64,000 nucleotides of DNA, taken from a virus. Position numbers and translations under genes: made by a program. Under the pieces are notes generated by a model that saw only the letters and a list, made by a program, of their open reading frames with translations, had not been told where the DNA came from and did no database searches. The DNA lies in the IMG/VR virus record IMGVR_UViG_3300017917_001151, positions 1 through 64,000 of that record; one strand, written 5' to 3'. This document shows, piece by piece, positions 35,921-64,000 of the stretch; the first letter of the stretch is position 1, and every line of letters starts with the position of its first letter.

Positions 35921-36901
35921 ATGTCTACCAATTTTCAAGAAATTCCATTTCAAAACATAGTTCGATTTGGTCAACGAACAATGTTAACCAAACCCTTGTT
36001 TGCCGTAAGTTGGATCCTAGGTAGGTTCTGCAACTACAAATGTAGTTATTGTTGGCCATATGCAAGGTCAGACAAACCTGATCACGAAAGTTTAGAAACT
36101 TACAAATCTACTATCAACGAAATCAAAAGACAGGCTAGACAAAATGGATTCACAGAATTCCACTGGAGCTTTAGTGGCGGCGAACCAACCGCTTACAAAC
36201 ATTTAAATGATCTCATCAAACACCTCGACGAACAGGAAAGTCCTTACCAAAGTGTTCACATGACTACTAATTTGAGTCCCGGTAGTAGTTGGTGGAAAAC
36301 ATGGTGTAACAATACTAGCTTATTGCAAAGAAGAAGTATTACTGCTAGTTTTCACGAGGAATTTGCCAAAGAGACAGAGTTTGGAGACAAGTGTCTGCAA
36401 CTGTTAAATGAATATGTACACGTGACTATCAATCAGGTTATGGTTCCGGAAAAATTTTACGAAACATATGAACAGTGCCAACGATTTCATAAGAGGGGTA
36501 TTAATGTTACTCTTAAACCACAAAGTGATCCTACAGCCAGTTTTATTGTAGATGGCTACACAGAAGATATGATTAATCTTATGCAAACAGGATTTCCTCA
36601 GGAATCATTTGGAGAAGAAGTTTATCAAATAGCGTTATACGACACAGAAGGTAGAGAATATTTGTTTGACCAGGCAGAACGATTTAATACTTTTGGATTC
36701 AATAAATTTCAGGAATGGTCTTGTAATTCTGGATATCAAAGTGTTATAATAAGAGGCAACGAAGTTAAGCGTTCTTATAGCTGCCACGATCAGCCGTTAG
36801 GAAATATTTTAACAGGATTTAATTTGTTCGCTGAACCTAAAAAATGTATCACACCTAGTTGTGTTAGTTCAGCAGACAGTAAGATACCAAAATGCAAATA
36901 G
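35921..36901 (+). CDS. radical SAM enzyme with C-terminal twitch/SPASM-like Cys domain (family A)
   Basis: CNYKCSYC, SGGEPT, TTN; C-terminal W.CNSG...C...C...C. Confidence 0.92.
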   Translation: MSTNFQEIPFQNIVRFGQRTMLTKPLFAVSWILGRFCNYKCSYCWPYARSDKPDHESLETYKSTINEIKRQARQNGFTEFHWSFSGGEPTAYKHLNDLIKHLDEQESPYQSVHMTTNLSPGSSWWKTWCNNTSLLQRRSITASFHEEFAKETEFGDKCLQLLNEYVHVTINQVMVPEKFYETYEQCQRFHKRGINVTLKPQSDPTASFIVDGYTEDMINLMQTGFPQESFGEEVYQIALYDTEGREYLFDQAERFNTFGFNKFQEWSCNSGYQSVIIRGNEVKRSYSCHDQPLGNILTGFNLFAEPKKCITPSCVSSADSKIPKCK

Positions 36902-37482
36902 ATACAGAACATTTACATCACTGGATGCAGGCAATACGCCAAAGTCCGGATCCTATGCGTACTATGGACGCATTCTGGTCGGGGCAACTTAAAAGCAAAG
37001 AGTGGTTGATCACAAATCTACGTAAGCACGTTAACAAGTTTGTTACTGTAGATATTCATGGAGGTTGGGTAGGAGTATTGGCTAGTATGCTGTTCCAGAG
37101 CGATGTTCCTATTCTTAATATTCGTAGCATAGACATAGATCCTAATTGCGAACCAATCGCTATCAATATGAACAAGATAGAAGAGATGGTGGGAAAATTT
37201 CAGGCAGTAACATCTGATATGTGTACCGTTAGCAGTAATGCTGATGTTGTTATCAATACTAGCTGCGAACACATAACACAAGAACAATATGATCTATGGC
37301 TGACTGGTCTTCCTCATGATAGGTTATTGGTACTACAGAGCAACAATTATAACATTCCAGAGCACGTTAGAATAGCCAATGACCTAGAAGAATTTAAACA
37401 ACAATGCCATGTTAGTGTGTTATGGGCAGGTGAACTAGAACTACCATTGTATAAGCGGTTTATGATTATAGGAAAAAAATAA
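36892..37482 (+). CDS. class I SAM-dependent methyltransferase-like protein
   Basis: IHGGWVG, SIDID, DM, DVVINTSCEH. Confidence 0.7.
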   Translation: MQIDTEHLHHWMQAIRQSPDPMRTMDAFWSGQLKSKEWLITNLRKHVNKFVTVDIHGGWVGVLASMLFQSDVPILNIRSIDIDPNCEPIAINMNKIEEMVGKFQAVTSDMCTVSSNADVVINTSCEHITQEQYDLWLTGLPHDRLLVLQSNNYNIPEHVRIANDLEEFKQQCHVSVLWAGELELPLYKRFMIIGKK

Positions 37483-37505
37483 TATGTAATCATATTATTG
37501 ATAAA

Positions 37506-38498
37506 ATGGAATTAATTGAAATAAAACAAGACGGATGGGATCCAGAAACATTGTGGGTCGAACTAACTATCGGAAATATCTGCAATTTTAAATGTTGGTA
37601 TTGTTTTCCGGGGTACAACGACGGCAGTATAAAGTGGCCGGACTACGATCTGTTGATTTCTAATCTTTCTCATTTGTTGGATTATTATCAAACACATACA
37701 GATAAGAAAAAATTTGCTATTCATTTATTAGGTGGCGAAATTATTTTTTGGAAGAGATTCGTCGACCTTTCTAAATTTTTAAAAGAAAATTATAACTGTG
37801 TAATCATATTAACAACAAATGCTTCTAAAAATATAGATTGGTGGGAAGAATCTGTTGGATGGTTAGACATTGTTCATATAAGTGTTCATCATGAATTTTC
37901 AAATCCTAAACATATAATCGATGTAGCAGATTTTTTATACGACAAAAAAGTAGAAGTTGAGGTAAATGTATTCATGGATCCCTTTAAATGGGAAACATGC
38001 GCCGACATAGTTGAAGCGTTGAAAAACAGCAAAAATGTTTGGGATATAAATTACAAAGAAATCCAATTTGATATACATAGAAGATATAACAAAGACCAAG
38101 ATGAGTTACTCAATAAAGTAAACGCAAGGTCGTCAAACAAAGACAAAAAATTTGTCATAGCACCGATGTCTCATAGACATTTTGTAAAAGGTGTTGATGT
38201 TAACGGAAAAGAACAATCCTACGGATTTAATGATTTACTTTCTCAAAGAAACAACGAATTTAAAGGTTGGGACTGTAATGTTGGAGTAGATTGGATTGCC
38301 GTTCATGCAGACGGAACAGTTTCTGGAATTTGTAGAAATGGTTTATACAAAGATGGAAAAACTTATAATATTTTTGATCTAAATTTTAAAGAACAGTTCA
38401 ACCCATCTATTACCAGTTCTATTTGTACAACTGATCGTTGTTGGTGTATATTTGAAGTTAATATGCCTAAAAGAAAAATCATACCAATTTTATCATGA
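37506..38498 (+). CDS. radical SAM enzyme (family A)
   Basis: CNFKCWYC, LGGE, TTN; FKGWDCNVG...C...C....CWC. Confidence 0.92.
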   Translation: MELIEIKQDGWDPETLWVELTIGNICNFKCWYCFPGYNDGSIKWPDYDLLISNLSHLLDYYQTHTDKKKFAIHLLGGEIIFWKRFVDLSKFLKENYNCVIILTTNASKNIDWWEESVGWLDIVHISVHHEFSNPKHIIDVADFLYDKKVEVEVNVFMDPFKWETCADIVEALKNSKNVWDINYKEIQFDIHRRYNKDQDELLNKVNARSSNKDKKFVIAPMSHRHFVKGVDVNGKEQSYGFNDLLSQRNNEFKGWDCNVGVDWIAVHADGTVSGICRNGLYKDGKTYNIFDLNFKEQFNPSITSSICTTDRCWCIFEVNMPKRKIIPILS

Positions 38499-40045
38499 AG
38501 CATCACGTTTTATTTTTTTCATTATCCGGTAAACGATGGGAACGAGCTCTATGGTCTCATAGAGTCGCTACCTTTTTGCGAATGAACGATTGGGATGCCG
38601 AAGTAATTGATTTTGCTTCTTTTTGGAAACTAATAGAACTTCAAGAACTTGTTAGAAGTCGTGTCTCGAATAAAACTGTGATGTTTTGTTTTGGAACTGC
38701 ATTTTTAAATCCGTGGAGCCCCTATATGAATGAATTTATAGCGTGGCTTAAAACAGAATATCCAACCATTCCTGTGGTAGTGGGTGGAAATAATGCATTG
38801 GTAACTCCTGCTGTTGGTGTAGATTATTGGGTTGACAGTTATGGAGAGAACGCTGTTCTTTCTCTTTGCAGACACCTTATTGGAACATTAGGCGCACCTT
38901 TACTAACTGATCCCGCATTCTTCGGTTCAAAGAAAGTTATTAGAGGACTTTATCATTATCCTAGTGCTCCGTTAGACAGTTATCTAGTAGATTACGAAGA
39001 ACGTGATTTCATGAGTCCCTATGAATGTCCTCAGATAGAAACTGCACGTGGTTGTATGTTTAGTTGTTCTTACTGTAACTTTCCTATTATAGGACAAGCT
39101 AAAGACGTAAGTGTGAGCAAAGAAGAATTTAAACGTCAGATGCAGACAGGCTATGAAAAGTGGGGTATTAAGAATTGGCGGGTAATGGATGAAACATTTA
39201 ATGACCGTCCAGAGAAATTGCAAAAGTATGCAGACGCAGTAGACGAGCTAGGATACAATCCGTGGATATGTGGTTTTGCTCGCGGCGACCTAGTTGTTAA
39301 ACATCGAGAGCATTGGGACACTTATATTAGATTAGGATTCCTTGGCCACAGCATGGGCATTGAAACTTTTAACAAAGAAGCAGGTCGACTTGTACGCAAG
39401 GGCATGGATCCAGATAAACTTAAAGAAGGTCTGCTAGAATTTCAAGCATACACAGACATACATGCACCTAGACGTTATAGGGCAAACATACAAATGATCT
39501 GTGGTATCCCGGGTGAAAGTACCGAATCATGGAACGACTCGTTGCAATGGCTCAACACATATTGGTTAAGACAAAGCGCCAGCGCACATATACTAGAAGT
39601 TCCAGATTATGATGAAACATTAACTAACCAAAGTCGTTTTACTAAAGAATTAGTTAGCAATGGTCTAATTAAATTAGATTCTAGGCAGAATCCCGGATAT
39701 GAAGTTTCTAAAGATAATAACGGAAATGTAATATTTAAATCTACAACCCCACGTGGAGGCGGCGTTGGTTCGACTAGAAACGATGTTGTGATATGGAAAC
39801 ACAACAATATGGATTGGTATCAGGCTCAGCAACTAGTAAGTGATTTTTATTCTGAAAACGGATTTAAGGGTCTTAGAGGCTGTAACCCTTTTCTATCAGA
39901 TAGGTTATTTCCGTATTACCAAACAGATGTCTATGAAGATGTATACGATATTAGATTAAGTGATATTGATACAGCTGATCAAAAATATAATGACATTCTA
40001 CAAAATTATATTAACAAAAAGTTAAGTTGGAGTCCCAGTGTTTAA
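38495..40045 (+). CDS. B12-binding-domain-type radical SAM enzyme (family D)
   Basis: N-terminal Rossmann-like domain with VVVGG; RGCMFSCSYC; DETFND; GIET; GIPGES. Confidence 0.88.
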   Translation: MKHHVLFFSLSGKRWERALWSHRVATFLRMNDWDAEVIDFASFWKLIELQELVRSRVSNKTVMFCFGTAFLNPWSPYMNEFIAWLKTEYPTIPVVVGGNNALVTPAVGVDYWVDSYGENAVLSLCRHLIGTLGAPLLTDPAFFGSKKVIRGLYHYPSAPLDSYLVDYEERDFMSPYECPQIETARGCMFSCSYCNFPIIGQAKDVSVSKEEFKRQMQTGYEKWGIKNWRVMDETFNDRPEKLQKYADAVDELGYNPWICGFARGDLVVKHREHWDTYIRLGFLGHSMGIETFNKEAGRLVRKGMDPDKLKEGLLEFQAYTDIHAPRRYRANIQMICGIPGESTESWNDSLQWLNTYWLRQSASAHILEVPDYDETLTNQSRFTKELVSNGLIKLDSRQNPGYEVSKDNNGNVIFKSTTPRGGGVGSTRNDVVIWKHNNMDWYQAQQLVSDFYSENGFKGLRGCNPFLSDRLFPYYQTDVYEDVYDIRLSDIDTADQKYNDILQNYINKKLSWSPSV

Positions 40046-41090
40046 GTTTGATCAATTAGAACAAATCCATTTAGAGATTACAAATAATTGTCAGGCGTCT
40101 TGTCCTATGTGTACAAGAAACATTAACAGCGGATTAGAGAATCCATTAATTAAAATACAGAATTGGACACTAGGCGACTTTAAGACCATAATGTCTGAAG
40201 AAGTATTGAAACAAATTAAGAGTTATTATTTCTGCGGAAACTTTGGTGATCCGATCATTAATAATGACCTTATTGAAATGTGTAGGTATACAACAGAAGT
40301 ATCTCCAGATGTTCGAGTCGCTATTCATACAAACGGTGGCGCAAGAAGCAAAGCATGGTGGACACTATTAGCTCACGCACTTCCAAAAAATCATTCAGTG
40401 ATGTTCGCCATAGACGGGTTAGAAGATACTCATCAGCTGTATAGGGTAGGAACGACCTATGACGATGTTGTTGAAAATGCTCGTGCTTTTATTCTAGCAG
40501 GCGGTAATGCCGAATGGGTGTTTATTAAATTTAAACACAACGAACATCAGGTAGACGAAGCAAGACGTAGAGCTAACAAATTAGGGTTTTCTAAATTTAC
40601 ATTAAAAAATAGTAGACGTTTCATTGTAGAACCTTTTGTAAAAGTATTGGATAGAAACGGAAACTTAACACACGTCATTGAACCTTCAACTGAAACTCCT
40701 CTGAAGTTTATCGATAGAAAAATAATAGATTCTTATAAACAGATAGTTGATAGTTCTGTCATAAGTTGCGAAGTCCAAAAAAATAAAGAAGTGTATATAG
40801 ATGCTTACAAAAATTTATATCCGTGTTGTTGGTTAGGCAATGTACCTTATAGTTCTGGAAATTTAGAATTCGAAGTACAGAAAGAAACTAAACAACAGCA
40901 TCTAGAACTTGTAAAAAAATTAGGAAATACTAATACGATAGATAGATCTATAAAAGACATTATCAACAGTAACGAATATCAAACTGTTTGGCATGATTAT
41001 TGGAACATAAACAAACTAATTGTTTGTGCTAGAACCTGTAGTGTCAACACTAGTTTTTCTAAACCAAAGGATCAATTCGTATGCGAATAA
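40038..41090 (+). CDS. radical SAM enzyme with C-terminal twitch-like domain (family B)
   Basis: CQASCPMC, CGNFGDP, HTNG, IDG; YID...YPCC...C..TC. Confidence 0.92.
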   Translation: MFKFDQLEQIHLEITNNCQASCPMCTRNINSGLENPLIKIQNWTLGDFKTIMSEEVLKQIKSYYFCGNFGDPIINNDLIEMCRYTTEVSPDVRVAIHTNGGARSKAWWTLLAHALPKNHSVMFAIDGLEDTHQLYRVGTTYDDVVENARAFILAGGNAEWVFIKFKHNEHQVDEARRRANKLGFSKFTLKNSRRFIVEPFVKVLDRNGNLTHVIEPSTETPLKFIDRKIIDSYKQIVDSSVISCEVQKNKEVYIDAYKNLYPCCWLGNVPYSSGNLEFEVQKETKQQHLELVKKLGNTNTIDRSIKDIINSNEYQTVWHDYWNINKLIVCARTCSVNTSFSKPKDQFVCE

Positions 41091-41926
41091 AAATTGCTCC
41101 TGAATACTCTGCAGACTATTTAGAAATAGAACGACCACAACCATTGTCGGACAATCTTTTAGAAAAGACAATACAAGATGTAATGTCTGGAAAAATTAAT
41201 TCTAAGTTTGATTTAGTCTACGACGAATTTAAAAAAGAAATGCCAGGGTGGTTATTAAAAAGTAGAGTAAATCATTTAACCGGATTAGATACCTTTACAC
41301 GTTTAGACATTATAAATGGTTGCACTCAGTTTATCGACAACCTGTATATGCAGGGACCTGTGCAAGTACTTCGCGGTGATTATAGATACCACCAAAGATT
41401 AGGATTAGCGTATGTTAAGGATGTGGGCTCGCTGATTCCAGATATTCCTTTAATCGTAGCAATGCCGTTTCCTAGCATTGGTGCTCCACATCAAGACATG
41501 GAGGAAATACTATATGAATGCAAACTTAAAAATATTAAAGTGCATATTGATGGTGCTTGGATCAGTTGCTGCAGGGATATTAATTTTGATTTTAGTAATG
41601 AAGTTATTAGATCCGTTGGCATCAGCCTTAGTAAAGGTCTTGGTTTAGGTTGGAACAGAATAGGCTTACGTTGGACTAAAGACACTGAAGCAGATAGTAT
41701 TACAATCATGAATGACTTTAACATGAACCTACGTGCTACTGCTATGATCGGTCTTCACTTTATTCGAAATATAGAAGTAGATTATCTTTGGAATACACAC
41801 AAAGATAGATACTATAAAGTTTGTAAAGATTTTGAGCTAACACCTACTAAGGCTATATATCTAGCATTAAAAGATAATCAACCAGTCGGTGTTAGCCCAT
41901 TAATAAGATATTTAGAAAATGAGTGA
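41081..41926 (+). CDS. fold-type I PLP-dependent enzyme-like protein
   Basis: HIDGAW, SLSKGLG (Schiff-base Lys), RIG. Confidence 0.7.
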   Translation: MRIKIAPEYSADYLEIERPQPLSDNLLEKTIQDVMSGKINSKFDLVYDEFKKEMPGWLLKSRVNHLTGLDTFTRLDIINGCTQFIDNLYMQGPVQVLRGDYRYHQRLGLAYVKDVGSLIPDIPLIVAMPFPSIGAPHQDMEEILYECKLKNIKVHIDGAWISCCRDINFDFSNEVIRSVGISLSKGLGLGWNRIGLRWTKDTEADSITIMNDFNMNLRATAMIGLHFIRNIEVDYLWNTHKDRYYKVCKDFELTPTKAIYLALKDNQPVGVSPLIRYLENE

Positions 41927-43304
41927 AAAGATCAAAAGCTACATTAAGTTAATTGAAGAACGTACAGGTTCTCCTACGTTCTGTGTTTTGCCATGGGTGC
42001 ATATGGCTACCAGACCAAATGGAGATTGCAGATTATGCTGTGTAGCTAATGCCAGCGGTGCTCAAACGGGCGACCATGCAGTTGGCCTCGTTAGAAAAGA
42101 AAATGGACGACCAGCTAACTTCGGAGTAGATACACCCGTTGAAGCATTTAATAATGAGTACATGAAGAATGTAAGATTAACGATGCTAGATGGAAAAGTT
42201 CCTGCAAGTTGTACAAAATGTTTTGAAGAAGAAAGCAACGGCGTTGTTAGTAAACGTTTGTGGGAAATGTACGATTGGAACAATGATGGCTTTGACTTTA
42301 ATAAGGTCATCGATGAAACAGCAGAGGACGGAACAGTTCCTCCTGTAATTAGATACCTGGATCTAAGATTAGGTCATACCTGCAATTTGAAATGCGTTAT
42401 GTGTAGTCCTCATGACAGCAGCCGTTGGGTACAAGATTATGACAAGGTTATGTCATCAGTTAAAAGTCCTATCGTATTAAAACAAATTAATTGGGACGGA
42501 AACGAATTTAACAATTACTGGTATGAAAAGCCAGAATTCTGGGACGATATATTTGCACAGATTCCAAACATAAAGAAACTATACTTTGCAGGCGGCGAGC
42601 CTTTGATGATTAAAGAACATCAAAGATTCTTAGAAGAAATTATTGCTAGAGGATATGCAAAAGAAATAAGTCTAAGATATAACTCTAATGGTATATTGTT
42701 AACAGAAAAAATGATAGAGTTGTGGACTAATTTTAAACACGTAAAGTTTAATGTTAGCATTGATGCCGAGGGTGATCGTAATTACTATATTCGTTATCCT
42801 ACAGAATGGAATGATGTAATCCGTGTGTTGAAACGCTTAGACGAAACACCCGATAATATTTCTTCTAGTATTGAAGTAGCAGTCCAGGCATTGAATGCAG
42901 AGCATTTACCTGACTTTGCTAAATTTGTTTTAGGACAAAATTTTAAAAAAGTCAATAAACATTATCTATCAGAGTATCAAGCAGGTGGCGGAATATTCAG
43001 TATGCACCTGTTATTCATTCCTACATTTTTATCTGCACGTATTCTTCCTAAGGAACATAAAGAACGTATTCGTAAAAAGTTTATGGAATTTAAACAATGG
43101 CTATGGGACAACTATAGACAAGACGATGACTTCTGGGTCAATAATCCTTACGGCTGGGCACGTTGGGAAGCCATATTAAAATTTATCGAAGCAGAAGATC
43201 ACAGTTATATGCTTCCAGACTTTAAAGATTATTTTAACAATTTAGATAATATCAGAAGTTTAAATGCATCAACAACATTTCCGGAGTTAGGAGATATACT
43301 TTGA
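41919..43304 (+). CDS. radical SAM enzyme with N-terminal twitch-like domain (family C)
   Basis: FCVLPW...LCC...CTKC, then CNLKCVMC, AGGEPL, NSNG, SID. Confidence 0.93.
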   Translation: MSEKIKSYIKLIEERTGSPTFCVLPWVHMATRPNGDCRLCCVANASGAQTGDHAVGLVRKENGRPANFGVDTPVEAFNNEYMKNVRLTMLDGKVPASCTKCFEEESNGVVSKRLWEMYDWNNDGFDFNKVIDETAEDGTVPPVIRYLDLRLGHTCNLKCVMCSPHDSSRWVQDYDKVMSSVKSPIVLKQINWDGNEFNNYWYEKPEFWDDIFAQIPNIKKLYFAGGEPLMIKEHQRFLEEIIARGYAKEISLRYNSNGILLTEKMIELWTNFKHVKFNVSIDAEGDRNYYIRYPTEWNDVIRVLKRLDETPDNISSSIEVAVQALNAEHLPDFAKFVLGQNFKKVNKHYLSEYQAGGGIFSMHLLFIPTFLSARILPKEHKERIRKKFMEFKQWLWDNYRQDDDFWVNNPYGWARWEAILKFIEAEDHSYMLPDFKDYFNNLDNIRSLNASTTFPELGDIL

Positions 43305-44338
43305 AACCTATTAAGATAGTGTCAACTCAACGAGAAAACTTATTAGATATTCGTTGGACTCCTAACAATGTTTGCAATTTTAAATGCCGATATTGCTTTC
43401 CTAACAGTAATACAGGAGAGTATACTAGTCCAAAAGATCTTGATTTAATCGTTAACAATTTTAATTTTTTATTAAAAGAATACAAAGAAAAGTTAGGTAA
43501 GACCAGAACACATTTAAAAATTGCAGGAGGAGAGCCTACTCTATGGAAAGATTTAGATGTGTTCATCGAACGTATTAAAAAAGAAAACGAAGTATATGTG
43601 TCTTTGATCACTAACGGTTCTAGAACACTTCGTTGGTGGAAAGAACACGGGCACATGTTTGATAATGTACATTTAACACATCATGTTGCACAGGGTAAAT
43701 TAGATCATACGATAGCTGTTGCTGATACCATGTATGACTTTGGTAAGAAGATTACTGTTAAGGTGTTAATGGATTTAGAATGTTGGGACGAATGTGTCGC
43801 CGCAGTTGAATATCTAAAAACAAATAGCAGAAACAGATTCTTAATAATGGTTGGTGAAGTTATCGAACCGGAAGTATCCGACCTAGCAGGCATTAGAGTT
43901 GTCAACGCAGAAGATTTAAAGTATACACAAGATCAAAAGAAGTATCTCAGTAAAGGTCTAAGACGGATTCCGGGACCGTGGTGGTTCTGGAAAAATAGAC
44001 ATTTGATCACCTCTGGTGAAATTAGATTGTATGAAAGCGTGGCTACCTTAGAAGATGGTACTACGATCAAAGCAAAATCAGAAACTTATATTAATAAAAA
44101 TTGGAATAACTTTAAAGGTTGGAGTTGTAATATAGGCATTGAAGGTATCTTCATTGATTGGAAAGGAGATATCAAAGGTTCATGCAACGAACACCTATTT
44201 GGATTAGACTACGATTACAACATATTAGATTCTGACTTTTCAAAAAAATTTAATTTAAATCCTGTTCCTGCAATCTGCACAAAGTATAATTGTCTTTGCA
44301 CACCAGAGACACATATATCAAAGGTTAAACTTAGTTAA
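43301..44338 (+). CDS. radical SAM enzyme (family A)
   Basis: CNFKCRYC, AGGEPT, TNGSR; FKGWSCNIG...C...C....CLC. Confidence 0.92.
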   Translation: MKPIKIVSTQRENLLDIRWTPNNVCNFKCRYCFPNSNTGEYTSPKDLDLIVNNFNFLLKEYKEKLGKTRTHLKIAGGEPTLWKDLDVFIERIKKENEVYVSLITNGSRTLRWWKEHGHMFDNVHLTHHVAQGKLDHTIAVADTMYDFGKKITVKVLMDLECWDECVAAVEYLKTNSRNRFLIMVGEVIEPEVSDLAGIRVVNAEDLKYTQDQKKYLSKGLRRIPGPWWFWKNRHLITSGEIRLYESVATLEDGTTIKAKSETYINKNWNNFKGWSCNIGIEGIFIDWKGDIKGSCNEHLFGLDYDYNILDSDFSKKFNLNPVPAICTKYNCLCTPETHISKVKLS

Positions 44339-45223
44339 CGGTATATCAGCGGCACATGTACACCAGTCTCGTGTGCATATAACTGGATCGCTAGGAGCAA
44401 CAAACGTACCTTGGTATATGTTGCCTAGGCTACCACCTACCCTACAGGTAGCACGATGCACTTCCCCATTCCAATTAATCATGAGGCTTTCGAGACCGGC
44501 GTTACATGTCCATCCCTTGAATTGATTTAGATGTTTCTTAATAACATCGTTGGCATGAAAATAAACAGGTTCTTCGTTATGATTATGAATCACAGTATTT
44601 GGTTTTGCGGTTGACTCATGATCTAATATCCATTGTAGATCTTTTCCGTCGTATCTAAGGTCGTCGAATACGTTATGATCTCCCTCGGTCCATCGTATTC
44701 TACGAACAGCATACTTAATACCTATTTCGTTAAATTTGTTAACCACAGTTTTTACCTTAGGCATATAACTGTGATGAGCCATTACATTAACAAAGAAATC
44801 ACGTTCTGTGCTATCATAAAATTTTAATATCGTGTCGACGATTCTTGTGTAATCGTGTTCAAAGTGTAGACTGAAAACGAGATGATTAAAATACATTTCG
44901 TTATCTAAATACCAACGATATCCCCTAGTGCCATTTGTTGTAACATTAACCCAGAACACATTTTTACGTTTTAGGTAATCAAACAAATCTTCGATGTCCG
45001 GATGTACACAGGGCTCACCTCCGGTTAGACTAATGCGTAAAGGTTTACCTATTTCGCACAATCTGTCTACAGCAGATTCTAAAACATTGATGTTTGTATG
45101 AGGACTAAAATTATCATGAATACTGCTAGGACAATAACTGCAATCGTAGTTACAACGTTTACCTAGATTCCATTCTATCTTAATTTGGTCTTGGTGCGGC
45201 CATGAACTTGTAACCTTATACAT
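44318..45223 (-). CDS. radical SAM enzyme (family A)
   Basis: CNYDCSYC, TGGEP, TTNG; FKGWTCNAG...C...C....CTC. Confidence 0.92.
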   Translation of the reverse strand: MYKVTSSWPHQDQIKIEWNLGKRCNYDCSYCPSSIHDNFSPHTNINVLESAVDRLCEIGKPLRISLTGGEPCVHPDIEDLFDYLKRKNVFWVNVTTNGTRGYRWYLDNEMYFNHLVFSLHFEHDYTRIVDTILKFYDSTERDFFVNVMAHHSYMPKVKTVVNKFNEIGIKYAVRRIRWTEGDHNVFDDLRYDGKDLQWILDHESTAKPNTVIHNHNEEPVYFHANDVIKKHLNQFKGWTCNAGLESLMINWNGEVHRATCRVGGSLGNIYQGTFVAPSDPVICTRDWCTCAADIPLTKFNL

Positions 45224-47196: not shown

Positions 47197-47200
47197 GAAA

Positions 47201-49062: not shown

Positions 49063-49063
49063 T

Positions 49064-52755: not shown

Positions 52756-53123
52756 AGTTGATCACCGTCGCATAGTCTAATTTCTAACATACTGGAAGTT
52801 GTATATCCTATGTTAGCACAACTGTAAATTACTTCAGGATCTTTATCTAGTTCGTAAAGATCTCCCGCTTTGTAATCAGCAAGCATAGAACTATTATAGG
52901 TAAAGATGTGTCCAATCTCCCAGTCAGTTAAAAACATAATATACTTTACAGGATTTGGCGAGTTGGAAATAAAAGAATCTTTATGTGTAAGTTCGTATCT
53001 GCCTGGCTCAAATGTGCTAATGACCCAAGAAGAACTTTGTCGAGTTTCGGGTAACGGGGGTAATTCTATATCGTTAACATCATCTTTTGGAATTAAATCT
53101 TTATAATTTCCAATATATTTCAT
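52752..53123 (-). CDS. shortened/degenerate family F oxygenase-like protein
   Basis: HKD and DWEIGHIF kept; distal His replaced (YSCAN) and 2OG Arg lost. Confidence 0.68.
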   Translation of the reverse strand: MKYIGNYKDLIPKDDVNDIELPPLPETRQSSSWVISTFEPGRYELTHKDSFISNSPNPVKYIMFLTDWEIGHIFTYNSSMLADYKAGDLYELDKDPEVIYSCANIGYTTSSMLEIRLCDGDQL

Positions 53124-54242: not shown

Positions 54243-54823
54243 TATTTTATTCTTCCTGTAATCTTTTTTGTAAGTTCAAAATCTGATCTTCTGATATCAA
54301 ACACCATGCCAACACCGTCTTCACTGCCTTCATTTATAAATTCATGTTCTTCGCCGATGTCGATTATATAAACATTTCCGGGCTGTAAGTCTGCTACACC
54401 TTCTTTAGTGATCCATTTGATAGTAGGATTGTTTATGAAAGGTATCCATCCTCTCATAGCATCTCTTTCTTCGTTAGAATCAGCATGAGGAGGTGCATAT
54501 ACTCCGGGCGGTGTGACTCCAACAGCAAATCGATATGCCATAGGAAACAGGTCCATTAACGCTCTTCCGAAACCAAACGCTGCATCTGTATCGTGATAGT
54601 TTTCTTTGCCCATTAATTCAACACTTCTATATAGACCGTATGGCTTTTTAGGATCTTCGCTTTTCGGAATAGATAAAGACCAACCGTAAATGTCTTTGAT
54701 AGTTTCAAAAGCAGGTTGATCCGGCATGTTCCATTTAAGATAGGGACATGTTTTTTCTACTTCTCTGTAATATCTAATTCCGTCCTCTGGATCAAATGTA
54801 ACATCTAACTTAGTAACTATCAT
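54242..54823 (-). CDS. Asp/Asn beta-hydroxylase-like oxygenase (family G)
   Basis: YGWSL, PPHAD, PGNVY..D...HEFINEG. Confidence 0.8.
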   Translation of the reverse strand: MIVTKLDVTFDPEDGIRYYREVEKTCPYLKWNMPDQPAFETIKDIYGWSLSIPKSEDPKKPYGLYRSVELMGKENYHDTDAAFGFGRALMDLFPMAYRFAVGVTPPGVYAPPHADSNEERDAMRGWIPFINNPTIKWITKEGVADLQPGNVYIIDIGEEHEFINEGSEDGVGMVFDIRRSDFELTKKITGRIK

Positions 54824-55443
54824 AATAAATCCTTATAGTCAAATAGTTCTTCTGGTGTATCGTAAATTTTCTTTTCTTCTTTTAATCTAACAATAAACAC
54901 CATACGAGTATTTGGTCCGTAGTTCACAGAAGTATGATATATGTCTGATTTAATAAAAGTTATTTTATCAATTGTTGTAGAACCTATAGGTTCTAAATTT
55001 AATTCTGGATTGGCAAATGAAACCCAAAAATTATAAGGCGGCTCTGGACGAATTCTATTAACAATTATTTCGTTATCGTCAGATACATCTTCATTTCTAA
55101 ACCAATAATTAGTTGTTTCTTGAGTATTAGCTATAGGAATAACTATTACCCATTGGTTAGCAATCATCCTATCTTCCGGTACCTTACCGTTATCTTTTTT
55201 AAGACCGTCGATGTGAGTCATTAGACTTTTATTTCCGGGCAAAAAACATGAACTTGTTTCTACTACTTCAGTAAGGCATCTCGAAAAAACAAAATCATGC
55301 AAGGTTGGAAAATTAGAATAGTCCATTTGCACGAAATATTCTTCTTCTGCATCCGGCCTAAGGATAGAATTTTTATCAATATATTCTAATACTTCTCGTT
55401 GTATTTGTTCGAGCTGAGGAACGTTTATTTTTTGATAAAGCAT
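54820..55443 (-). CDS. 2OG-Fe(II) oxygenase-like protein
   Basis: THIDG...IPI...YHTSVN....R. Confidence 0.72.
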   Translation of the reverse strand: MLYQKINVPQLEQIQREVLEYIDKNSILRPDAEEEYFVQMDYSNFPTLHDFVFSRCLTEVVETSSCFLPGNKSLMTHIDGLKKDNGKVPEDRMIANQWVIVIPIANTQETTNYWFRNEDVSDDNEIIVNRIRPEPPYNFWVSFANPELNLEPIGSTTIDKITFIKSDIYHTSVNYGPNTRMVFIVRLKEEKKIYDTPEELFDYKDLL

Positions 55444-56246
55444 TAGTATGTGTCCAAGTGATCTATGCCTAACTTTTTACGGAAATCTTCTGTAAATTTT
55501 CCATCAATGCGTAGACTGTAACTTTGTTCCATGATACGTTCTCCACCATGCCAGTCTACATCATTCCACCATGCAGCTCGTGTATTGAGATATGTTTTGT
55601 TTTTTGTTTCGGGATCCCACAGATAGAATGCTTTCTTAGTGTTAGGACGTATGTGTATAAATTCGTTGCGATGAGGCGTAACAACATTAACACCATTCTT
55701 GGCATCTAAGTCTCGGTGTTCGAAAGGAATACCGTCTGCCTCGCAATGAAAGAATATAACACGGCCGATGTCTACAAAGATAGTACCTACTAGACTTTCA
55801 ACCCACTTAACGACATTAGGAAAGTACTCCGCTTCGGGTGTAAGTTTACGTGGTGCAGTTCGATCATCCCACGAACCTTCTTCCCATAGGTAATAATAAA
55901 TGTATGGATCATAAGACCCCATAGCCATCTTTAGATAGCGTGTAAAGACATTGCGTTCTTGAAAGTTCTTAAAGTCTTTAGGCATAAGTTTCATGCCTGC
56001 TTCCTTTATAGGATCGCTGTCGGGCAGTGCCATGAACTCCTGCATGGCTTCGTAGATGGGCTTCCAGTGTACACGATAACTCATATCGTCGAAGGTAAAT
56101 CCAGGAGCCATCCAAGTGCCTTCTTTGGCATGCTGTCTAGCTAATGCAAAACCTGTAAGGATTTCCGGCTGCATTTTTTCAAAGGCAGACATGTCAATAT
56201 ACGGTTCCATGTCTATATATGTGTTGCCGTTAATTCCCTTAATCAT
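55443..56246 (-). CDS. putative Fe(II) oxygenase-like (cupin) protein
   Basis: EHRD...WHGG...SLRIDG facial-triad-like spacing. Confidence 0.6.
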   Translation of the reverse strand: MIKGINGNTYIDMEPYIDMSAFEKMQPEILTGFALARQHAKEGTWMAPGFTFDDMSYRVHWKPIYEAMQEFMALPDSDPIKEAGMKLMPKDFKNFQERNVFTRYLKMAMGSYDPYIYYYLWEEGSWDDRTAPRKLTPEAEYFPNVVKWVESLVGTIFVDIGRVIFFHCEADGIPFEHRDLDAKNGVNVVTPHRNEFIHIRPNTKKAFYLWDPETKNKTYLNTRAAWWNDVDWHGGERIMEQSYSLRIDGKFTEDFRKKLGIDHLDTY

Positions 56247-57795
56247 TATTTTTCCTATCTTCTAACATTTTTATAAGTCTTGGGTAATAATCTAATTCAA
56301 CAATTTCATAAACTACTTGCTCAGGTATGTATGATTCTAGATTAAATTTAGTTCTCAATCTTGAAACCTGGAATCCCATAACTTTCATAAAATGTCCTAG
56401 GTATTGAGGTCCAAATATTTTCTTTTGTATTTCTACAATTTTTTCGTGATACTCAACTGCTAGCCTTTCTGCTTGATTCCTATCACGGATATCTCCAGTA
56501 TCTTTTTCAGTTTTCTCCCATAGGCCACCGTGAAAATCGATATGCTCGTCTGATAGCTCCTCGCTGGAAAATTTATATCCAAAATCGCTAATTCTATTAT
56601 CCATATCTGATACGAATATTCTATATGGATCGTGTTTTCTATTTTCTAATGACAAAAATAAAGGATTGATATTTGCGAAGTCTATGTAGTTGTGTCCTTC
56701 TTCTTCGTACCAAGAAATAAAGTTCTCAAAAGATTCAGTTGTATCGTTAGGTAGACCTACAATTAAATTTGCCACTACCATAACATCTTTGCCCCAACAT
56801 TCTTTAGCGATTTTCAAAGCCTGAATCTTTCGATCTCTCGACCCGCCTTTTTTAATAATTTTAGCTGTTTCTGGGTTCCATGTTTCTAATCCGTACATCA
56901 CATACTTAACACCAATCTTTTTCAATAGAGGCGCCATTTCAGGGTGGGCACCTATTAGATCGATTCTTGTATACGCAGCGAAATCGGGTTGGAAAGGAAG
57001 TTTCTCTATAACTTCGCTGAGTAGTTGAAGTTTATATACACTGTCATTAAAGGTATCGTCAACAATGAAGTAGGTAGTTACTCCCCATTTTTCATAATTA
57101 GACAACAGTTCATTATAAACAACTTCTTGATATTTTAGATAATCTATTGTTTTAGATCCTATCATAGGAAATGAACAAAATGCGCACTTAAAAATACAGC
57201 CTCTAGCGAATTCAACTGACAGTAATTCCTCAGCGTGTATTAAATCGTATTCAGTATATTCAATAGAAGAAGCATTAAAGTTAAAGTCCTTGGCCTTAAC
57301 ATCATGACTAATGATTCTAGGCAGGTTAAAGAAAGGTATAGACATACTGTCTAAGTAAGTTTCAATTTGACCTTCACTATAGCCAATAAAAATGTTGTCA
57401 ATTGATTCCTGATCTATATACTTGTGCGCAGTAAATCCACCTAAGATTATTTTTACATTAGGATTTATTGATTTAATATAATCTGCGAAGGGTTTTACGT
57501 TTTTATTTTTAAAATTAATGCTGACTGATTTTTCTTTCCAGTCGTCCGTATCAGGAAATATATCTACCTGAGAATCAAACCAGTTGGCACTAAAACCAAC
57601 AATTAAGGTTTCTTGGTCTACAGACAAATCGATAATGTTTTTAAACTTTTCCCAGTTCAGTGCAAACGAATAATTTACAACTAGTGTTTCATAGCCTTTA
57701 TTTCTGATGGCCGAAGCAATACTGTATGTTCCGGCAGATCGTGTAAAGCCGAACCTTACTTCCGAGTCGCTGAATAAAATAACTTTAAATGTCAT
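56239..57795 (-). CDS. B12-binding-domain-type radical SAM enzyme (family D)
   Basis: RSAGTYSIA, IILGG, RGCIFKCAFC, DDTFND, GLET, GLPNDT. Confidence 0.9.
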   Translation of the reverse strand: MTFKVILFSDSEVRFGFTRSAGTYSIASAIRNKGYETLVVNYSFALNWEKFKNIIDLSVDQETLIVGFSANWFDSQVDIFPDTDDWKEKSVSINFKNKNVKPFADYIKSINPNVKIILGGFTAHKYIDQESIDNIFIGYSEGQIETYLDSMSIPFFNLPRIISHDVKAKDFNFNASSIEYTEYDLIHAEELLSVEFARGCIFKCAFCSFPMIGSKTIDYLKYQEVVYNELLSNYEKWGVTTYFIVDDTFNDSVYKLQLLSEVIEKLPFQPDFAAYTRIDLIGAHPEMAPLLKKIGVKYVMYGLETWNPETAKIIKKGGSRDRKIQALKIAKECWGKDVMVVANLIVGLPNDTTESFENFISWYEEEGHNYIDFANINPLFLSLENRKHDPYRIFVSDMDNRISDFGYKFSSEELSDEHIDFHGGLWEKTEKDTGDIRDRNQAERLAVEYHEKIVEIQKKIFGPQYLGHFMKVMGFQVSRLRTKFNLESYIPEQVVYEIVELDYYPRLIKMLEDRKNND

Positions 57796-58855
57796 CTTTT
57801 CTGTGTCCGTAGTTGTCTATATATTCTTGAGGAATAGTATCCCATAAATTTAAACCTTTATTCACTGCACAATCTCGAAGTATAACTTGGTGTACTAACG
57901 GAGATCTTGGTTTTCCTGGTAGTATATCAGCCATGGCTTCGGTCTGAACTTCTAGTAAGTCCAATGTTTTAGCATCAGGCCACTGAATTATTTTAACAAG
58001 GATTCCGTTAATTGTCATTGGATAGTGTGCCCTATTGCCGGTGTAGGGATCAAATCCCACCTGCCATTTATTTTTTTCAGCAATACGGTTAGCTTCCTTC
58101 ACTAGATCAGATAAAAAGATTTTCGGACCTCCTGGATAACGACCAATGTCTGCTCCGCATCTTACTCTATATTGTTCACATATACCTGTACCGAATTGTT
58201 GTATTTCTTCTAAGCAATATTCCATCTGATCTAATGTTTCTAATGTATAACTAACATTCTTAATACGAAGACCAACGTCTTGCATATTCTTAATGCCTTC
58301 CATCTGCTTCATACGAACAGTGCGTCCTTGGTAATCGGGGTGGTTAAGGCCGATAGTCCACATGACATTTTTTAAGTCTTTAAACTGTTCTACATATTCT
58401 CTTTCGGATAATCTAACTCCGTTGGTTAGAATCATGATGCCACGAGGCTTACCGGGCAATGCTTGTATTGCTTTAATAAACTCAGGAAGGTCTTTTCTTA
58501 CAGTCGGCTCTGCTCCACACAGGGCTACAGGAAAACCGTCATCTGGCCAACTTTTAATAATGTTTAAAAAATAATCTATAGGCTTATCTTTGCTCATATT
58601 GTCCGGTTCTTGATAGCAGTTTGGACAATTTAAATTGCAACGATTGGTGATATCAATGAGATAACTTTGTAGTGCTTCTCTCGGATAGTTATAATTTAAA
58701 TAAAAGTCTGCATCTGGTTCAACTAGATGTTCACTGTATCCGTGATGTTTGCAGGTTTTACCTAACCAAATTTGACCGTCGCGGTGAAACCTTGTAGCAG
58801 GTACATGCCTGTAACAATTCTCACATACTGATAATGTGTCTTCTAGTTTAATCAT
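57785..58855 (-). CDS. radical SAM enzyme with N-terminal CxxC...CxxHG metal site (family E)
   Basis: CENC...KTCKHHG; CNLNCPNC; GAEPT; LTNG. Confidence 0.9.
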   Translation of the reverse strand: MIKLEDTLSVCENCYRHVPATRFHRDGQIWLGKTCKHHGYSEHLVEPDADFYLNYNYPREALQSYLIDITNRCNLNCPNCYQEPDNMSKDKPIDYFLNIIKSWPDDGFPVALCGAEPTVRKDLPEFIKAIQALPGKPRGIMILTNGVRLSEREYVEQFKDLKNVMWTIGLNHPDYQGRTVRMKQMEGIKNMQDVGLRIKNVSYTLETLDQMEYCLEEIQQFGTGICEQYRVRCGADIGRYPGGPKIFLSDLVKEANRIAEKNKWQVGFDPYTGNRAHYPMTINGILVKIIQWPDAKTLDLLEVQTEAMADILPGKPRSPLVHQVILRDCAVNKGLNLWDTIPQEYIDNYGHRKDDI

Positions 58856-58911: not shown

Positions 58912-59475
58912 ATGAAAGTTGCTATAACAGGACATACCAGTGGTATTGGTTTGTCATTAGCTGAAAAGTTTTTAGAAAATAAATGTGAAGTTGTTGGATT
59001 TAGCCGATCTAACGGATTTGATATTGGAAACGAGGCTCACAGAATGGAAATTCTTAACAAGATAGATGACTGTGATGCATTTATCAATAATGCCTTCCAC
59101 GATGACGGACAATTAAAACTGTTAGAAGGTGTTATGAAAAGATGGGAAGGAGCCAATAAACACGTTGTTAACATCTCGAGCGTTATTGTTTTGATGCCCG
59201 AAAACAATTTTGTGCAATGGCCAAAGGTTCACAGTTATAGATCTGCGAAGTTAAATCTAAATAATTTTGCAAGAAATTATAAGGGTAGTGTTAGATTACT
59301 CAATGTTCTTCCCGGAATTGTAAAAACAAATTTTTATTTAATAGATGAGAATCCAGAAGCAATGGTTAATGCTATGGATGTGTCTTTTGTTACAGATAAA
59401 ATTATAAACGTTTTTTTCAATGAGGGTTATGCAACAAAACAGATCGTGATTTCAAAAGCAACTCAAGGATTATGA
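58912..59475 (+). CDS. short-chain dehydrogenase/reductase
   Basis: TGHTSGIG, INNA, NISS, YRSAK, PG.V.T. Confidence 0.9.
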   Translation: MKVAITGHTSGIGLSLAEKFLENKCEVVGFSRSNGFDIGNEAHRMEILNKIDDCDAFINNAFHDDGQLKLLEGVMKRWEGANKHVVNISSVIVLMPENNFVQWPKVHSYRSAKLNLNNFARNYKGSVRLLNVLPGIVKTNFYLIDENPEAMVNAMDVSFVTDKIINVFFNEGYATKQIVISKATQGL

Positions 59476-60947
59476 TTAAAAATTTTCATTCTATAATTTT
59501 TAATATGGGGGCTTTGGGCGAATACATTAAAGGTAGAACGTCTGGAGCTTATCGTATTGCCACAGAACTACGAACACAAGGTTGGGACGTGGAAGTTGTA
59601 GATTTCTTTTATTTTTGGAAATTAGAAGAATTAAAAGAATTATCCAGAAATAGAATCAATAAGAACACGAAGTTTATAGGCTTTAGTCATATTTTCAGTG
59701 ACTGGCCAGAACTAGCTGAAGATTATACTACATGGGTAAAAGAAAATTATCCCGATATTAAGATTATCTTTGGCTGCAATGCTTATAAAAATTTTAATAC
59801 AAAAAACATAGATTATTATGTTGCCGGTTATGGAGAGTTGGCTTTACTTACATTATTAGAATATCTGTTTAGCAACGGAACTAGACCTATAATAACTCCC
59901 ATCGACGGCAACAGAGTCATTGAAGCACAAAAATATTATACTGCAACTCCTTGGAGAGAACCAAGCATCTTCTATGAAGATAGAGATTTTATCAAAGATC
60001 ACGAATGGCTTGGTATTGAGTTTAGTAGAGGATGTAAATTTAAATGTGCCTATTGTAATTTCCCTGTACTAGGTGTGAGAGGAGATTACGGTAGAAACCT
60101 TGACGGTGCGAAACTTCAATTACAAGATGCATACGATAGATTCGGTACAACGAAGTATCTAATCAGCGACGAAACATTTAACGATAGAACAGAAAAAATT
60201 ACTAAGATTGCCGACATGATCGAAACCTTAGAGTTTCAACCGTTCTTTGCATCGCATATTAGAGCAGATTTATTAATATCTAGGCCGCACGAAAAAGAAG
60301 AACTTCTGAGAATGAATACTTTATTCCATTTTTATGGAATAGAATCTTTTAACTACGAGTCTGCCAGAGTATGTGGCAAAGGTATGAAGTCTGAAAGACT
60401 AAGAGAAGGTGTTATTAACATTAAAAATTTCTTTAAAAATAACGGCACAGGTTATTATAGAGGCACCATCGGCCTTATTGCAGGTCTTCCATACGAAACA
60501 GAAGAGTCAGTTATAGATACGATTAAGTTTTTGAACGAGCATTGGAAAGGCGAAAATGTGATGTTAAATCCTCTAGACATTTATAAGTCGTCTTTGGCCA
60601 ACGTTTCTATATTTGAAGAGAAGTTTGACGAGTTTGGTTATCGAGTGATGACTGAAGTTCCGGAAGAATATAGAAACGGATCTAGAGAGTTAGCGACCGG
60701 ACCTCGATTTACTCCTAATTCTGTTATATGGGAAAATGATCACACCAACTATTATAGGATTAGAGAAATCGTTTCTAAGTTAAGAGATACATTTGACGAT
60801 GTATATAGACTTGCCTGCTTTGAATTGTCCAATGACTTTTCTGATAAAGGACTGGAACATACACTAACTATACCATATAGTACATTTGGTGGCGAGTATC
60901 AAACAGCGTTTGTGGAAAATTATAAGAAACAAAAATTAGGATTATAA
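59472..60947 (+). CDS. B12-binding-domain-type radical SAM enzyme (family D)
   Basis: RTSGAYRIA, GYGE, RGCKFKCAYC, DETFND, GIES, GLPYET. Confidence 0.9.
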   Translation: MIKNFHSIIFNMGALGEYIKGRTSGAYRIATELRTQGWDVEVVDFFYFWKLEELKELSRNRINKNTKFIGFSHIFSDWPELAEDYTTWVKENYPDIKIIFGCNAYKNFNTKNIDYYVAGYGELALLTLLEYLFSNGTRPIITPIDGNRVIEAQKYYTATPWREPSIFYEDRDFIKDHEWLGIEFSRGCKFKCAYCNFPVLGVRGDYGRNLDGAKLQLQDAYDRFGTTKYLISDETFNDRTEKITKIADMIETLEFQPFFASHIRADLLISRPHEKEELLRMNTLFHFYGIESFNYESARVCGKGMKSERLREGVINIKNFFKNNGTGYYRGTIGLIAGLPYETEESVIDTIKFLNEHWKGENVMLNPLDIYKSSLANVSIFEEKFDEFGYRVMTEVPEEYRNGSRELATGPRFTPNSVIWENDHTNYYRIREIVSKLRDTFDDVYRLACFELSNDFSDKGLEHTLTIPYSTFGGEYQTAFVENYKKQKLGL

Positions 60948-62069
60948 AAGTCTTTTAGGTTTCTTTGCAGGACTTTCAAACTTGTATTCTAACTCGCTAA
61001 TTTCTATAGGTCCGGACCAATTCTTTTTCCAATAGTTGCTTTCAAACTTTTCTTTTAGCACGTAGTGGTCCGGGACTATATCAAGACGTTTCATTTTATT
61101 ATTTGTAAACGCATCTCTTAATATAACCTGATGAATGTAATTAGTAATCGGACCTTCGTTAAACGCTGCCCAAGGTCCGTTGTTTAATTCTTCCATATCT
61201 GCACTTCTAACATCGGGCCATTGGATTACACGAATATTCATACCCTTCCAGTTGTACATATTATGATATAAATTTTCTTCTAGGGGTGTATGAACAAGCT
61301 CGTCGCCTAACAGTTTCTTCAATGCTTTAACTGTAGTGCTTAGATAATTCCTTCCGCCGGTGCTACGACCAATGCTGGCACCCATTCTAATTCTAACTAG
61401 ATTAACTTTGTCTCTACCTATCTTATCTAATTCTTCTAATATCTCAGGTAGGTGATCTAGATCCTCGAGGGTATAACCTATACCATCTAGTCGGCCGTGT
61501 TCTTTAATGTTCTCTATACCGCGAAGTTGTTTTTCGTGTACTTTTTTACCTTGATATGTCCAATGATTTAAACCTACAGCCGGTAATATAGTACGTCCGG
61601 TGAGTAGTTCTTTTGCCCAGTCGTTGTCGGCAAATCTAAGACCGTTGGTTAACATTCTAACTTTTCCAAAGTCATCTGCTAATTTGTGACTCAATGGAAT
61701 AATTTCTGAATATAGAGATGCTTCTGCTCCGGCAAGAATAGGAATAAACCCTTCTGGAAACATTTCAGGTATTCTAATTAAACTACTCATAGGACTGTCT
61801 ATGTATTTGTTATCCGGAAGTTGATAACAATGAGGACAGTTTAACTGACACTTGTTTGTTACTTCAAACATAATCGAAACAAATTCACTTTCGTCGGTTT
61901 TAGAAAGACCGTAATAGTATTCCAAATCAATTTCAACTACTTCTTCCATGATGCCGTGCTCTGGACATTTTTTAGATAACCAAATTTTATCATCTCTTTC
62001 AAAGACAACACCTGGAATGTGTCGATAACATTCATTGCAAAGACCGACTGTATTGTGTATAAATTTCAT
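60942..62069 (-). CDS. radical SAM enzyme with N-terminal CxxC...CxxHG site (family E)
   Basis: CNEC...KKCPEHG; CQLNCPHC; LTNG; HQVILRD shared with 57785. Confidence 0.9.
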   Translation of the reverse strand: MKFIHNTVGLCNECYRHIPGVVFERDDKIWLSKKCPEHGIMEEVVEIDLEYYYGLSKTDESEFVSIMFEVTNKCQLNCPHCYQLPDNKYIDSPMSSLIRIPEMFPEGFIPILAGAEASLYSEIIPLSHKLADDFGKVRMLTNGLRFADNDWAKELLTGRTILPAVGLNHWTYQGKKVHEKQLRGIENIKEHGRLDGIGYTLEDLDHLPEILEELDKIGRDKVNLVRIRMGASIGRSTGGRNYLSTTVKALKKLLGDELVHTPLEENLYHNMYNWKGMNIRVIQWPDVRSADMEELNNGPWAAFNEGPITNYIHQVILRDAFTNNKMKRLDIVPDHYVLKEKFESNYWKKNWSGPIEISELEYKFESPAKKPKRLL

Positions 62070-62093: not shown

Positions 62094-62097
62094 GTTG

Positions 62098-62844
62098 ATG
62101 TTTAAAATATTTGATAACTTTTTCACCGAAGAAGAGTGTAATACCGCTGCTGAATATGTAAAACAAAAAGAATCTTCATGGTATAAATGCCCGTGGACCG
62201 GTATGTATATTCTTGGAAATAGTTTGTTTCGTAAAATTACATTTACAGAATCTGGAATAGACTACGGAAATTATTTTGAGATTGGATCTATAGATTCGCC
62301 TGCCTCACAAATTCTTAAAAATAAGTTAACAAATAATTTTAATAAAGTTGAATTTGTGAATGGCCTTAGTAAGCCCGGATTTCAAATTATTAAATTAAAC
62401 GAAAGCAAAGATCCTAGCGTCTGGCATTACGATGATATGATTACTTGTTTTCCTTTTGAAAAATATTTCAAAGACTACACAGGAAATTTTAATGAATATT
62501 TTGATCAAAAATTAATTTTTACAGTGCTGTTAAGCGATGGACACTATACTTTCGACTACTATCCCGAAACGTTATCAGAGTTTGGAAAAGATTATAAAGA
62601 AGCACGTAACACAAGTCCTATATGTCCCCAGCATCGAAATCTAATAGGAGACGACTGTGCAAATCCGGATTGTACATTAAAGGAATTTAAAACACTTTAT
62701 TATAAAAAGGGTATGATGTTATTGCAAGACGAAAGATATTTGCATCGAGTCGGACTAGTAGATTTAAATGGTACTAGTGATCTTAGAATAACTTTGCAGG
62801 GATACGGTCTTGTTAAGGACGATATTCTTTATTTGATATGGTGA
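62098..62844 (+). CDS. 2OG-Fe(II) oxygenase-like protein
   Basis: FDNFFTEEEC start, WHYD, LHRVG, RITLQG; Cys insert C..H......C....C. Confidence 0.78.
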   Translation: MFKIFDNFFTEEECNTAAEYVKQKESSWYKCPWTGMYILGNSLFRKITFTESGIDYGNYFEIGSIDSPASQILKNKLTNNFNKVEFVNGLSKPGFQIIKLNESKDPSVWHYDDMITCFPFEKYFKDYTGNFNEYFDQKLIFTVLLSDGHYTFDYYPETLSEFGKDYKEARNTSPICPQHRNLIGDDCANPDCTLKEFKTLYYKKGMMLLQDERYLHRVGLVDLNGTSDLRITLQGYGLVKDDILYLIW

Positions 62845-63488
62845 ACAATCAATTTGTTGTATCGGATGTTTTCATCAGGTCCGCAGCTCAAAGAAATAAC
62901 ATTATAATTATAATCTTTAGTTTGTTCTAAGACTTCATCTTTAGTATAAGATGCCATAAATGATCGTTTTGTATCTGTAATATACTTTTCATCGAACATT
63001 GGCATCATTAGATTAAACAGATTATCTAAAGAAGAAATTTCATCGGGTCTTTCTAAGTCTACTACAAATACATTATCGCTGAGATTCTTAACAGTTTTCC
63101 AAAGGTTTTCGGTGTCGTTAATATGATGTAAAACTCTATTAATTAAAACACCGTCGTAGTTCCCTGTTGCAGATAACAGATCACCTTTTATAATTTTTAT
63201 TCTATCCGACAGGTTGTTATTTTTAATATTCTCCTCGGCTAGAGAAATCATAATATCTGACATTTCATAGCAATCAAATGTAAGGTCGGGAAATTCTAAA
63301 CACAATGCGATTACAAAATTACATGGGCCGGAGCCAAGGTCTGCAATTTTACCAGCTGTCACATTAAAATAATTTTTATATAAGGTTATGTAGTCGACTA
63401 GATCGTATGAATTTATAAGAGATTGATTATAAAAGTTGCAACCTTCAATGTCGGTCATTAAATCATAATCTTCTGGAATGCGTTTCAT
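62829..63488 (-). CDS. class I SAM-dependent methyltransferase
   Basis: IADLGSGP, GD, YD.V....VLHH, DL.RP. Confidence 0.9.
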   Translation of the reverse strand: MKRIPEDYDLMTDIEGCNFYNQSLINSYDLVDYITLYKNYFNVTAGKIADLGSGPCNFVIALCLEFPDLTFDCYEMSDIMISLAEENIKNNNLSDRIKIIKGDLLSATGNYDGVLINRVLHHINDTENLWKTVKNLSDNVFVVDLERPDEISSLDNLFNLMMPMFDEKYITDTKRSFMASYTKDEVLEQTKDYNYNVISLSCGPDENIRYNKLIVHHIK

Positions 63489-64000
63489 CTATATTTCTCC
63501 GGTAATGTATCGAATAAAAATTGCTGTTCATTAAACGATCTATCTCTTAATATAACCTGATGTAGTAAAGGACTCATTGGCTTTCCTGGAATCATATCAG
63601 CATAGGATTCAGAAAATGTTTCGTTAAAATCTATGGTCTTAACGTCGACCCATTTGATTAGTCTATGAACTAAGCCGTTGATCCTTACTAAGAAGTGTGT
63701 TCGATTACCCTCTATAGGATCAACGTCCCACGTCCATCCTTTTATTTTACAGAGTTTCTCTGCTTCTTTTACTAGATCTGATAGGTATAACTCCGGACCG
63801 TGGTCTTCGGGAGTCCTTCCTATATCTACTCCGACCTGTATCCTTGCATTGTCACATATACCTTTTCGATTCCATTCTTGTATTTCTTCTAAAACAAAAT
63901 CAAGTTGTTTAAGATCTCCGAGGGTGTATGTAAAATTTTTTATTTGCAGACCTAATTCAACACAATTTTTAATACCTTGTTCTTGTTTGCTTCGAATAAC
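63485..64000 (-). CDS. C-terminal part of a third family E radical SAM enzyme (5' beyond window; not in ORF track)
   Basis: Hand translation ...KQEQGIKN...YTL...LEEIQ...DIGR...YLSDLVKEA...GNRTH...PGKPMSPLLHQVILRD... aligns with the 57785 protein. Confidence 0.88.
   Translation of the reverse strand, partial: VIRSKQEQGIKNCVELGLQIKNFTYTLGDLKQLDFVLEEIQEWNRKGICDNARIQVGVDIGRTPEDHGPELYLSDLVKEAEKLCKIKGWTWDVDPIEGNRTHFLVRINGLVHRLIKWVDVKTIDFNETFSESYADMIPGKPMSPLLHQVILRDRSFNEQQFLFDTLPEKYR

Follow-up and report, generated by a model that had tools for sequence, protein, structure and literature searches.

A variable island of radical SAM and oxygenase-like genes between fibre genes of an uncultured T4-like jumbo phage

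Introduction

Arrays of multiple radical SAM (rSAM) genes in T4-like phages were already in print in 2010 (PMC2853527) and 2017 (PMC5332604), and hypervariable fibre-linked islands with rSAM cassettes followed in 2020 (PMC7029224). The island analysed here, from a fragment of an uncultured T4-like jumbo phage in a freshwater pond metagenome, thus has precedent, and the uniqueness implied by its initial annotation was overstated.

Results

Extent and authenticity of the island

In the window (the whole stretch analysed, 64,000 nucleotides of IMG/VR record IMGVR_UViG_3300017917_001151), 33 consecutive, close-packed open reading frames run from 35921 to the right edge at 64000, as first annotated. 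The annotated size of more than 28 kb was right in that the island runs past this edge, but its real extent in the record is 35921-73205, about 37.3 kb and 45 genes (Table 1). These include 15 rSAM genes and about 19 iron-oxygenase-like proteins, with at least 12 AspH-type or related cupins and one TauD in the island, as well as methyltransferase, acyltransferase, short-chain dehydrogenase (SDR), PP-loop and kinase-fold proteins. The genes are ordered as short operons of alternating strand, with overlaps of 4-21 bp between convergent neighbours and gaps of 25-65 bp between divergent ones. None of 47 proteins has a 19-residue segment with mean Kyte-Doolittle hydropathy of 1.6 or more, and so no membrane segments are predicted. 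The same contig encodes a clamp loader, a gp9/10-type baseplate and tail-fibre genes, which confirms that the island is phage-encoded; the region at 5-30 kb holds tail-fibre and baseplate genes, and fibre-like g46 directly follows the island, which therefore sits between fibre genes. Misassembly is excluded by the presence of 100% of sampled words in one pond sequencing run and by the same neighbourhoods across 78 related loci. The island is genuine and common to many related phages.

Table 1. Features of the island and its surroundings (Pfam scores are for Radical_SAM unless named; positions are those of the record).
Feature	Coordinates	Strand	Evidence or remark
Fe-S supply operon: IscA-type carrier, IscU, Fe/Mn superoxide dismutase	21648..22887	-	PF01521 60.6 bits; PF01592 182.6 bits; Sod_Fe_C 75.4 bits
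GT-like protein, Kdo-8-phosphate synthase, PTPS/QueD-like protein	24210..26523	-	possibly linked to island; KdsA NF003543 419 bits, cut-off 242
g01, rSAM family A	35921..36901	+	Pfam 43.6 bits; CX3CX2C at residue 37
g02, 196-aa protein	36892..37482	+	no Pfam family
g03, rSAM family A	37506..38498	+	Pfam 33.4 bits; CX3CX2C at residue 26
g04, rSAM family B, class-B-like, Rossmann N-terminus	38495..40045	+	Pfam 52 bits
g05, rSAM family C, weak SPASM-like tail	40038..41090	+	Pfam 31.7 bits; SPASM 16.8 bits, below cut-off; 45% identity to g16
g06, 281-aa protein, earlier "PLP" gene	41081..41926	+	no Pfam or NCBIfam family
g07, N-terminal-twitch rSAM, family D	41919..43304	+	NCBIfam NF033640 N_Twi_rSAM 388.6 bits, cut-off 170
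g08, rSAM family A	43301..44338	+	Pfam 49.8 bits; 30% identity to g03
g09, rSAM family A	44318..45223	-	Pfam 48.2 bits
g10, N-terminal-twitch rSAM, family D	45216..46481	-	NF033640 336.2 bits, cut-off 170; Pfam SPASM over residues 10-70
g11, PP-loop ATPase-like ("QueC-like")	46468..47196	-	Pfam ATP_bind_3 19.8 bits, cut-off 27
Divergent junction, one of six	47197..47235	.	TAAATA-type boxes on both strands
g12, AspH-like cupin	47236..47907	+	iterated profiles join to g21/g23/g40, E 2.6e-37
g13, kinase-fold paralog of core g36	47904..48578	+	BLASTP to g36 E 1.6e-16
g14, small cupin of g18 family	48571..49062	+	profile links to g18, g19, g20, g22
g15, AspH-like cupin	49064..49747	+	BLASTP to g21 E 1.8e-10; profile links g21, g23, g40
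g16, rSAM family C	49756..50844	+	Pfam 33.7 bits; CX3CX2C at residue 18
g17, TauD/TfdA-family Fe/2OG dioxygenase	50839..51672	-	Pfam TauD 94 bits, cut-off 27
g18, g19, g20, three tandem small cupin paralogs	51662..53123	-	mutual identity 39-44%
g21, Asp/Asn beta-hydroxylase family	53189..53743	+	Pfam Asp_Arg_Hydrox 37.1 bits, cut-off 22.6
g22, small cupin of g18 family	53727..54242	-	34% identity to g18
g23, AspH-like cupin	54242..54823	-	35% identity to g21; Pfam Cupin_2 below cut-off
g24, protein with HxD motif	54820..55443	-	no family match; no profile link
g25, core 2OG-oxygenase-fold protein	55443..56246	-	predicted fold
g26, rSAM family B	56239..57795	-	Pfam 74.2 bits; B12-binding 18.7 bits, below cut-off
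g27, core rSAM family E, zinc ribbon + rSAM, Tes/GDGT-MAS-like	57785..58855	-	Zn_ribbon_HMPTM 50.8 bits; Radical_SAM 52.5 bits
g28, short-chain dehydrogenase-like	58912..59475	+	Pfam adh_short 32.8 bits, cut-off 26.6, residues 3-34 only
g29, rSAM family B	59472..60947	+	Pfam 41 bits; B12-binding 19.1 bits, below cut-off; 32% identity to g04
g30, rSAM family E	60942..62069	-	Zn_ribbon_HMPTM 54.4 bits
g31, protein with HxD motif	62095..62844	+	no family match
g32, class I SAM methyltransferase	62829..63488	-	seven Pfam methyltransferase models, best Methyltransf_12 38.8 bits
g33, rSAM family E	63485..64000 in window; full gene 63485-64534	-	full length: Zn_ribbon_HMPTM + Radical_SAM
Other divergent junctions	53124-53188, 58856-58911, 62070-62094	both	TAAATA-type boxes
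Divergent junctions beyond window	64535-64574, ~70367-70396	both	TAAATA-type boxes
Island beyond window, g34-g45	to 73205		includes g40, g41, g44, g45
g41, hexapeptide acyltransferase	beyond window, within g34-g45
g44, rSAM family E	71399-72562		outside window
g45, AMP-binding fragment, 220 aa	beyond window		last island gene
g46, fibre-like	73247-74404		directly after island; Mtd_N domain, VTGN repeats

Radical SAM genes

Pfam Radical_SAM matches 13 complete genes in the window; the fourteenth, g33, encodes 349 aa in full, but the window holds just its C-terminal half, and this truncated form has no Pfam match. With g44, a six-frame search of the record places 15 of 15 rSAM genes over the Pfam cut-off, all within 36.0-72.1 kb, and each carries exactly one CX3CX2C motif. 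All-against-all BLASTP sorts them into five paralog families (identities 21-55%), namely A (g01, g03, g08, g09), B (g04, g26, g29), C (g05, g16), D (g07, g10) and E (g27, g30, g33, g44). The annotated set of 14 in the window, in five families with the last gene cut by the edge, is therefore correct, and the same comparison supports construction largely by old paralog expansion.

The families differ in their nearest described relatives. All NCBIfam matches of g09 fall below cut-off (best are viperin-like, NirJ, TrsS, STM4011 and QueE), and the family A profile (g09) finds viperin-like chains (E 2.7e-11), MoaA and QueE (E 2.4e-6) as its best PDB matches. The top NCBIfam model for g04, which is present in 33/78 related loci, is the PhpK family (57.8 bits, cut-off 600), and the family B profile best matches TokK (E 1.4e-7) in PDB; g26 scores far below cut-off with its best models (PhpK, ladderane-lipid, HpnJ, HpnR) and has no match among GenBank phages. 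In family D, g07 matches 3498 database clusters at E <= 1e-10 and g10 occurs in 46/78 loci. The best PDB match of g27 is 7tol GDGT-MAS (E 1.4e-24), while it reaches 78.9 bits with the TrsS model (cut-off 490) and 74.9 bits with the Tes model (cut-off 450). Family E best matches over the 78 loci number 71 for g27, 36 for g33, 6 for g44 and 4 for g30, whose Radical_SAM score is 28.8 bits by hmmscan; the six-frame search gives it 30.1 bits, which passes the cut-off.

Oxygenase-like and other enzymes

The initial annotation's "about 13 oxygenase-like genes" is a fair count, but membership is proven for part of them (g17 and g21, over cut-off); beyond the window g40 also exceeds the Asp_Arg_Hydrox cut-off. 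The g17 type reaches four copies in relatives, and g12, g14 and g24 are present in 58, 63 and 7 of the 78 loci. The small cupins g14, g18, g19, g20 and g22 belong to one family, in which H..D...H is invariant (in alignment A7 the H..D, G-H and H..N columns are invariant); their link to AspH-type enzymes is weak (iterated profiles, E 0.003-0.008), and their best PDB match, a 182-aa beta-hydroxylase, lies below significance (E 0.05). The most conserved island gene is g25, found in 71/78 loci with identity up to 88% and dN of 0.08; it has no sequence match in Pfam or PDB, and its 1052 database clusters, where named, are all "hypothetical protein". Its predicted fold is that of a 2OG oxygenase: the fold matches listed for the AF2 model (pLDDT 67) are all 2OG oxygenases, the top one human AspH (Z 7.4, rmsd 4.2, 150 aligned), with a Foldseek E of ~0.02.

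Other assignments fared unevenly. Only g32 stands of two annotated methyltransferases, its nearest NCBIfam model being the HemK family (below cut-off); g02, present in 5/78 loci, has no family match and shares 32% identity with a gene of Ralstonia phage RsoM2USA that lies two genes away from an N_Twi-like rSAM. The PLP assignment of g06 is unconfirmed: its best PDB profile matches are threonine aldolases at E ~0.9, and an S-L-S-K-G segment is invariant in alignment A6. The "QueC-like" g11 (31/78 loci) carries SGGxDS and a C-terminal CxxCxxC and its PP-loop match is weak and short of the cut-off (26.8 bits with the TilS N-terminal model, where 93.6 would be required); the QueC model reports nothing at E <= 0.01. 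The SDR call for g28 passes the adh_short cut-off, with the match confined to the N-terminus, and falls below cut-off with NCBIfam SDR models. The kinase-like gene holds up: g13 (63/78 loci) is paralogous to g36, and the g36 model adopts a protein-kinase fold, with ULK1, TTK, phosphorylase kinase and Bud32 as its top matches.

Neither the window nor the rest of the record holds a precursor peptide, NRPS/PKS or transporter, an absence first noted for the window, and no finding points specifically to a RiPP.

Promoter-like boxes

The island uses TAAATA late-type promoter boxes as virion genes do. TAAATA occurs within 45 nt upstream of 12/44 island genes and 9/63 other genes (random 48-nt windows, 1.5%), and at 11/11 operon starts placed at strand switches by the ORF calls; the twelfth precedes g37, inside an operon. 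The exact sequence TATAAATA stands 6 nt ahead of the g12 start and 2 nt ahead of the g31 start. TAAATA also precedes virion genes, among them g46, the giant fibre gene and baseplate genes. From this motif, and by analogy with T4, the island would be expressed late.

Distribution and neighbours

Relatives of the island occupy at least 142 IMG/VR loci. Distant relatives share a fixed core of g36, g38 (GNAT-like), g25 and g27, around which the paralog panel is swapped. No match to g25, g27 or g46 was found in 50,697 GenBank phage records, of which 1922 match the clamp loader. A host-derived block is not what we see: the cellular genomes searched hold no close copy, family E reaches 22-35% identity in its best cellular matches, mostly over their N-terminal half, and these have no other island family as neighbour, save a separate B12-type rSAM hit in 2/80 loci. 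The island's protein sequences are conserved: dN to nearest relatives is 0.08-0.3, while dS is saturated.

Of the 78 island loci, 42 carry a g46 homolog, and in 27 of these it is no more than 100 bp away from an island gene. Searching from g46, 45/80 loci carry an island homolog, as do 26 of the 33 that are 15 kb or longer and all 13 where the g46 match spans at least 250 aa.

Discussion

We tentatively propose, with rather less than even confidence, that the island is a hypervariable tailoring-enzyme block of the tail-fibre (host-recognition) region, made late to decorate the phage's own fibres or virion surface. The enzymes would be made in the cytoplasm alongside virion parts and might act serially or combinatorially on a substrate encoded outside the island, most likely fibre or virion proteins or a small sugar-like adduct on them. 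The rSAM enzymes would functionalise C-H bonds by radical chemistry (C-methylation, C-C coupling), and Fe/2OG enzymes would hydroxylate, before methyl or acyl capping. If so, the variable panel would diversify virion-surface chemistry between phage lineages.

This proposal draws on the island's position between fibre genes and its linkage to g46, on the TAAATA boxes common to island operons and virion genes, and on soluble products without scaffold synthase, transporter or precursor. Protein-acting families (Asp_Arg_Hydrox in g21/g40, the AspH fold of g25, the kinase fold of g36, the HemK-like nearest model of g32) argue for it too, as do the phage's own IscU, IscA-type carrier and superoxide dismutase. 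Against it, fibre adjacency may reflect just a permissive insertion site, the enzyme families are promiscuous as to substrate class, the usual catalytic Asp residues appear from alignment A3 to be missing in g36, and 7 of the 33 long loci of g46 type carry no island gene. GT2 and GT8 glycosyltransferases were found in none of five island-bearing records (0/5), so that any sugar adduct would lack a visible transferase, save one GT-like gene (phrog_1962 glycosyltransferase, E 1.4e-26) 10 kb from the island.

A 7-deazapurine or nucleic-acid branch would fit part of the island at least equally well, given PP-loop g11 and the FolE and QueD-like genes of related records (the PTPS/QueD-like protein here scores 45 bits with Pfam PTPS and 35 bits with the QueD equivalog, cut-off 89); no TGT/DpdA was found. 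The other rivals are host-envelope sugar editing and a free metabolite.

The arrangement also has parallels among described phages. Campylobacter phage CP21 carries family A homologs beside annotated tail-fibre genes (CP21_027/028 are homologs of g09, and g01 has a weak full-length homolog in this phage), and in aquatic T4-like phages fibres, glycosyltransferases and rSAM cassettes occur together in the host recognition cluster (PMC7029224).

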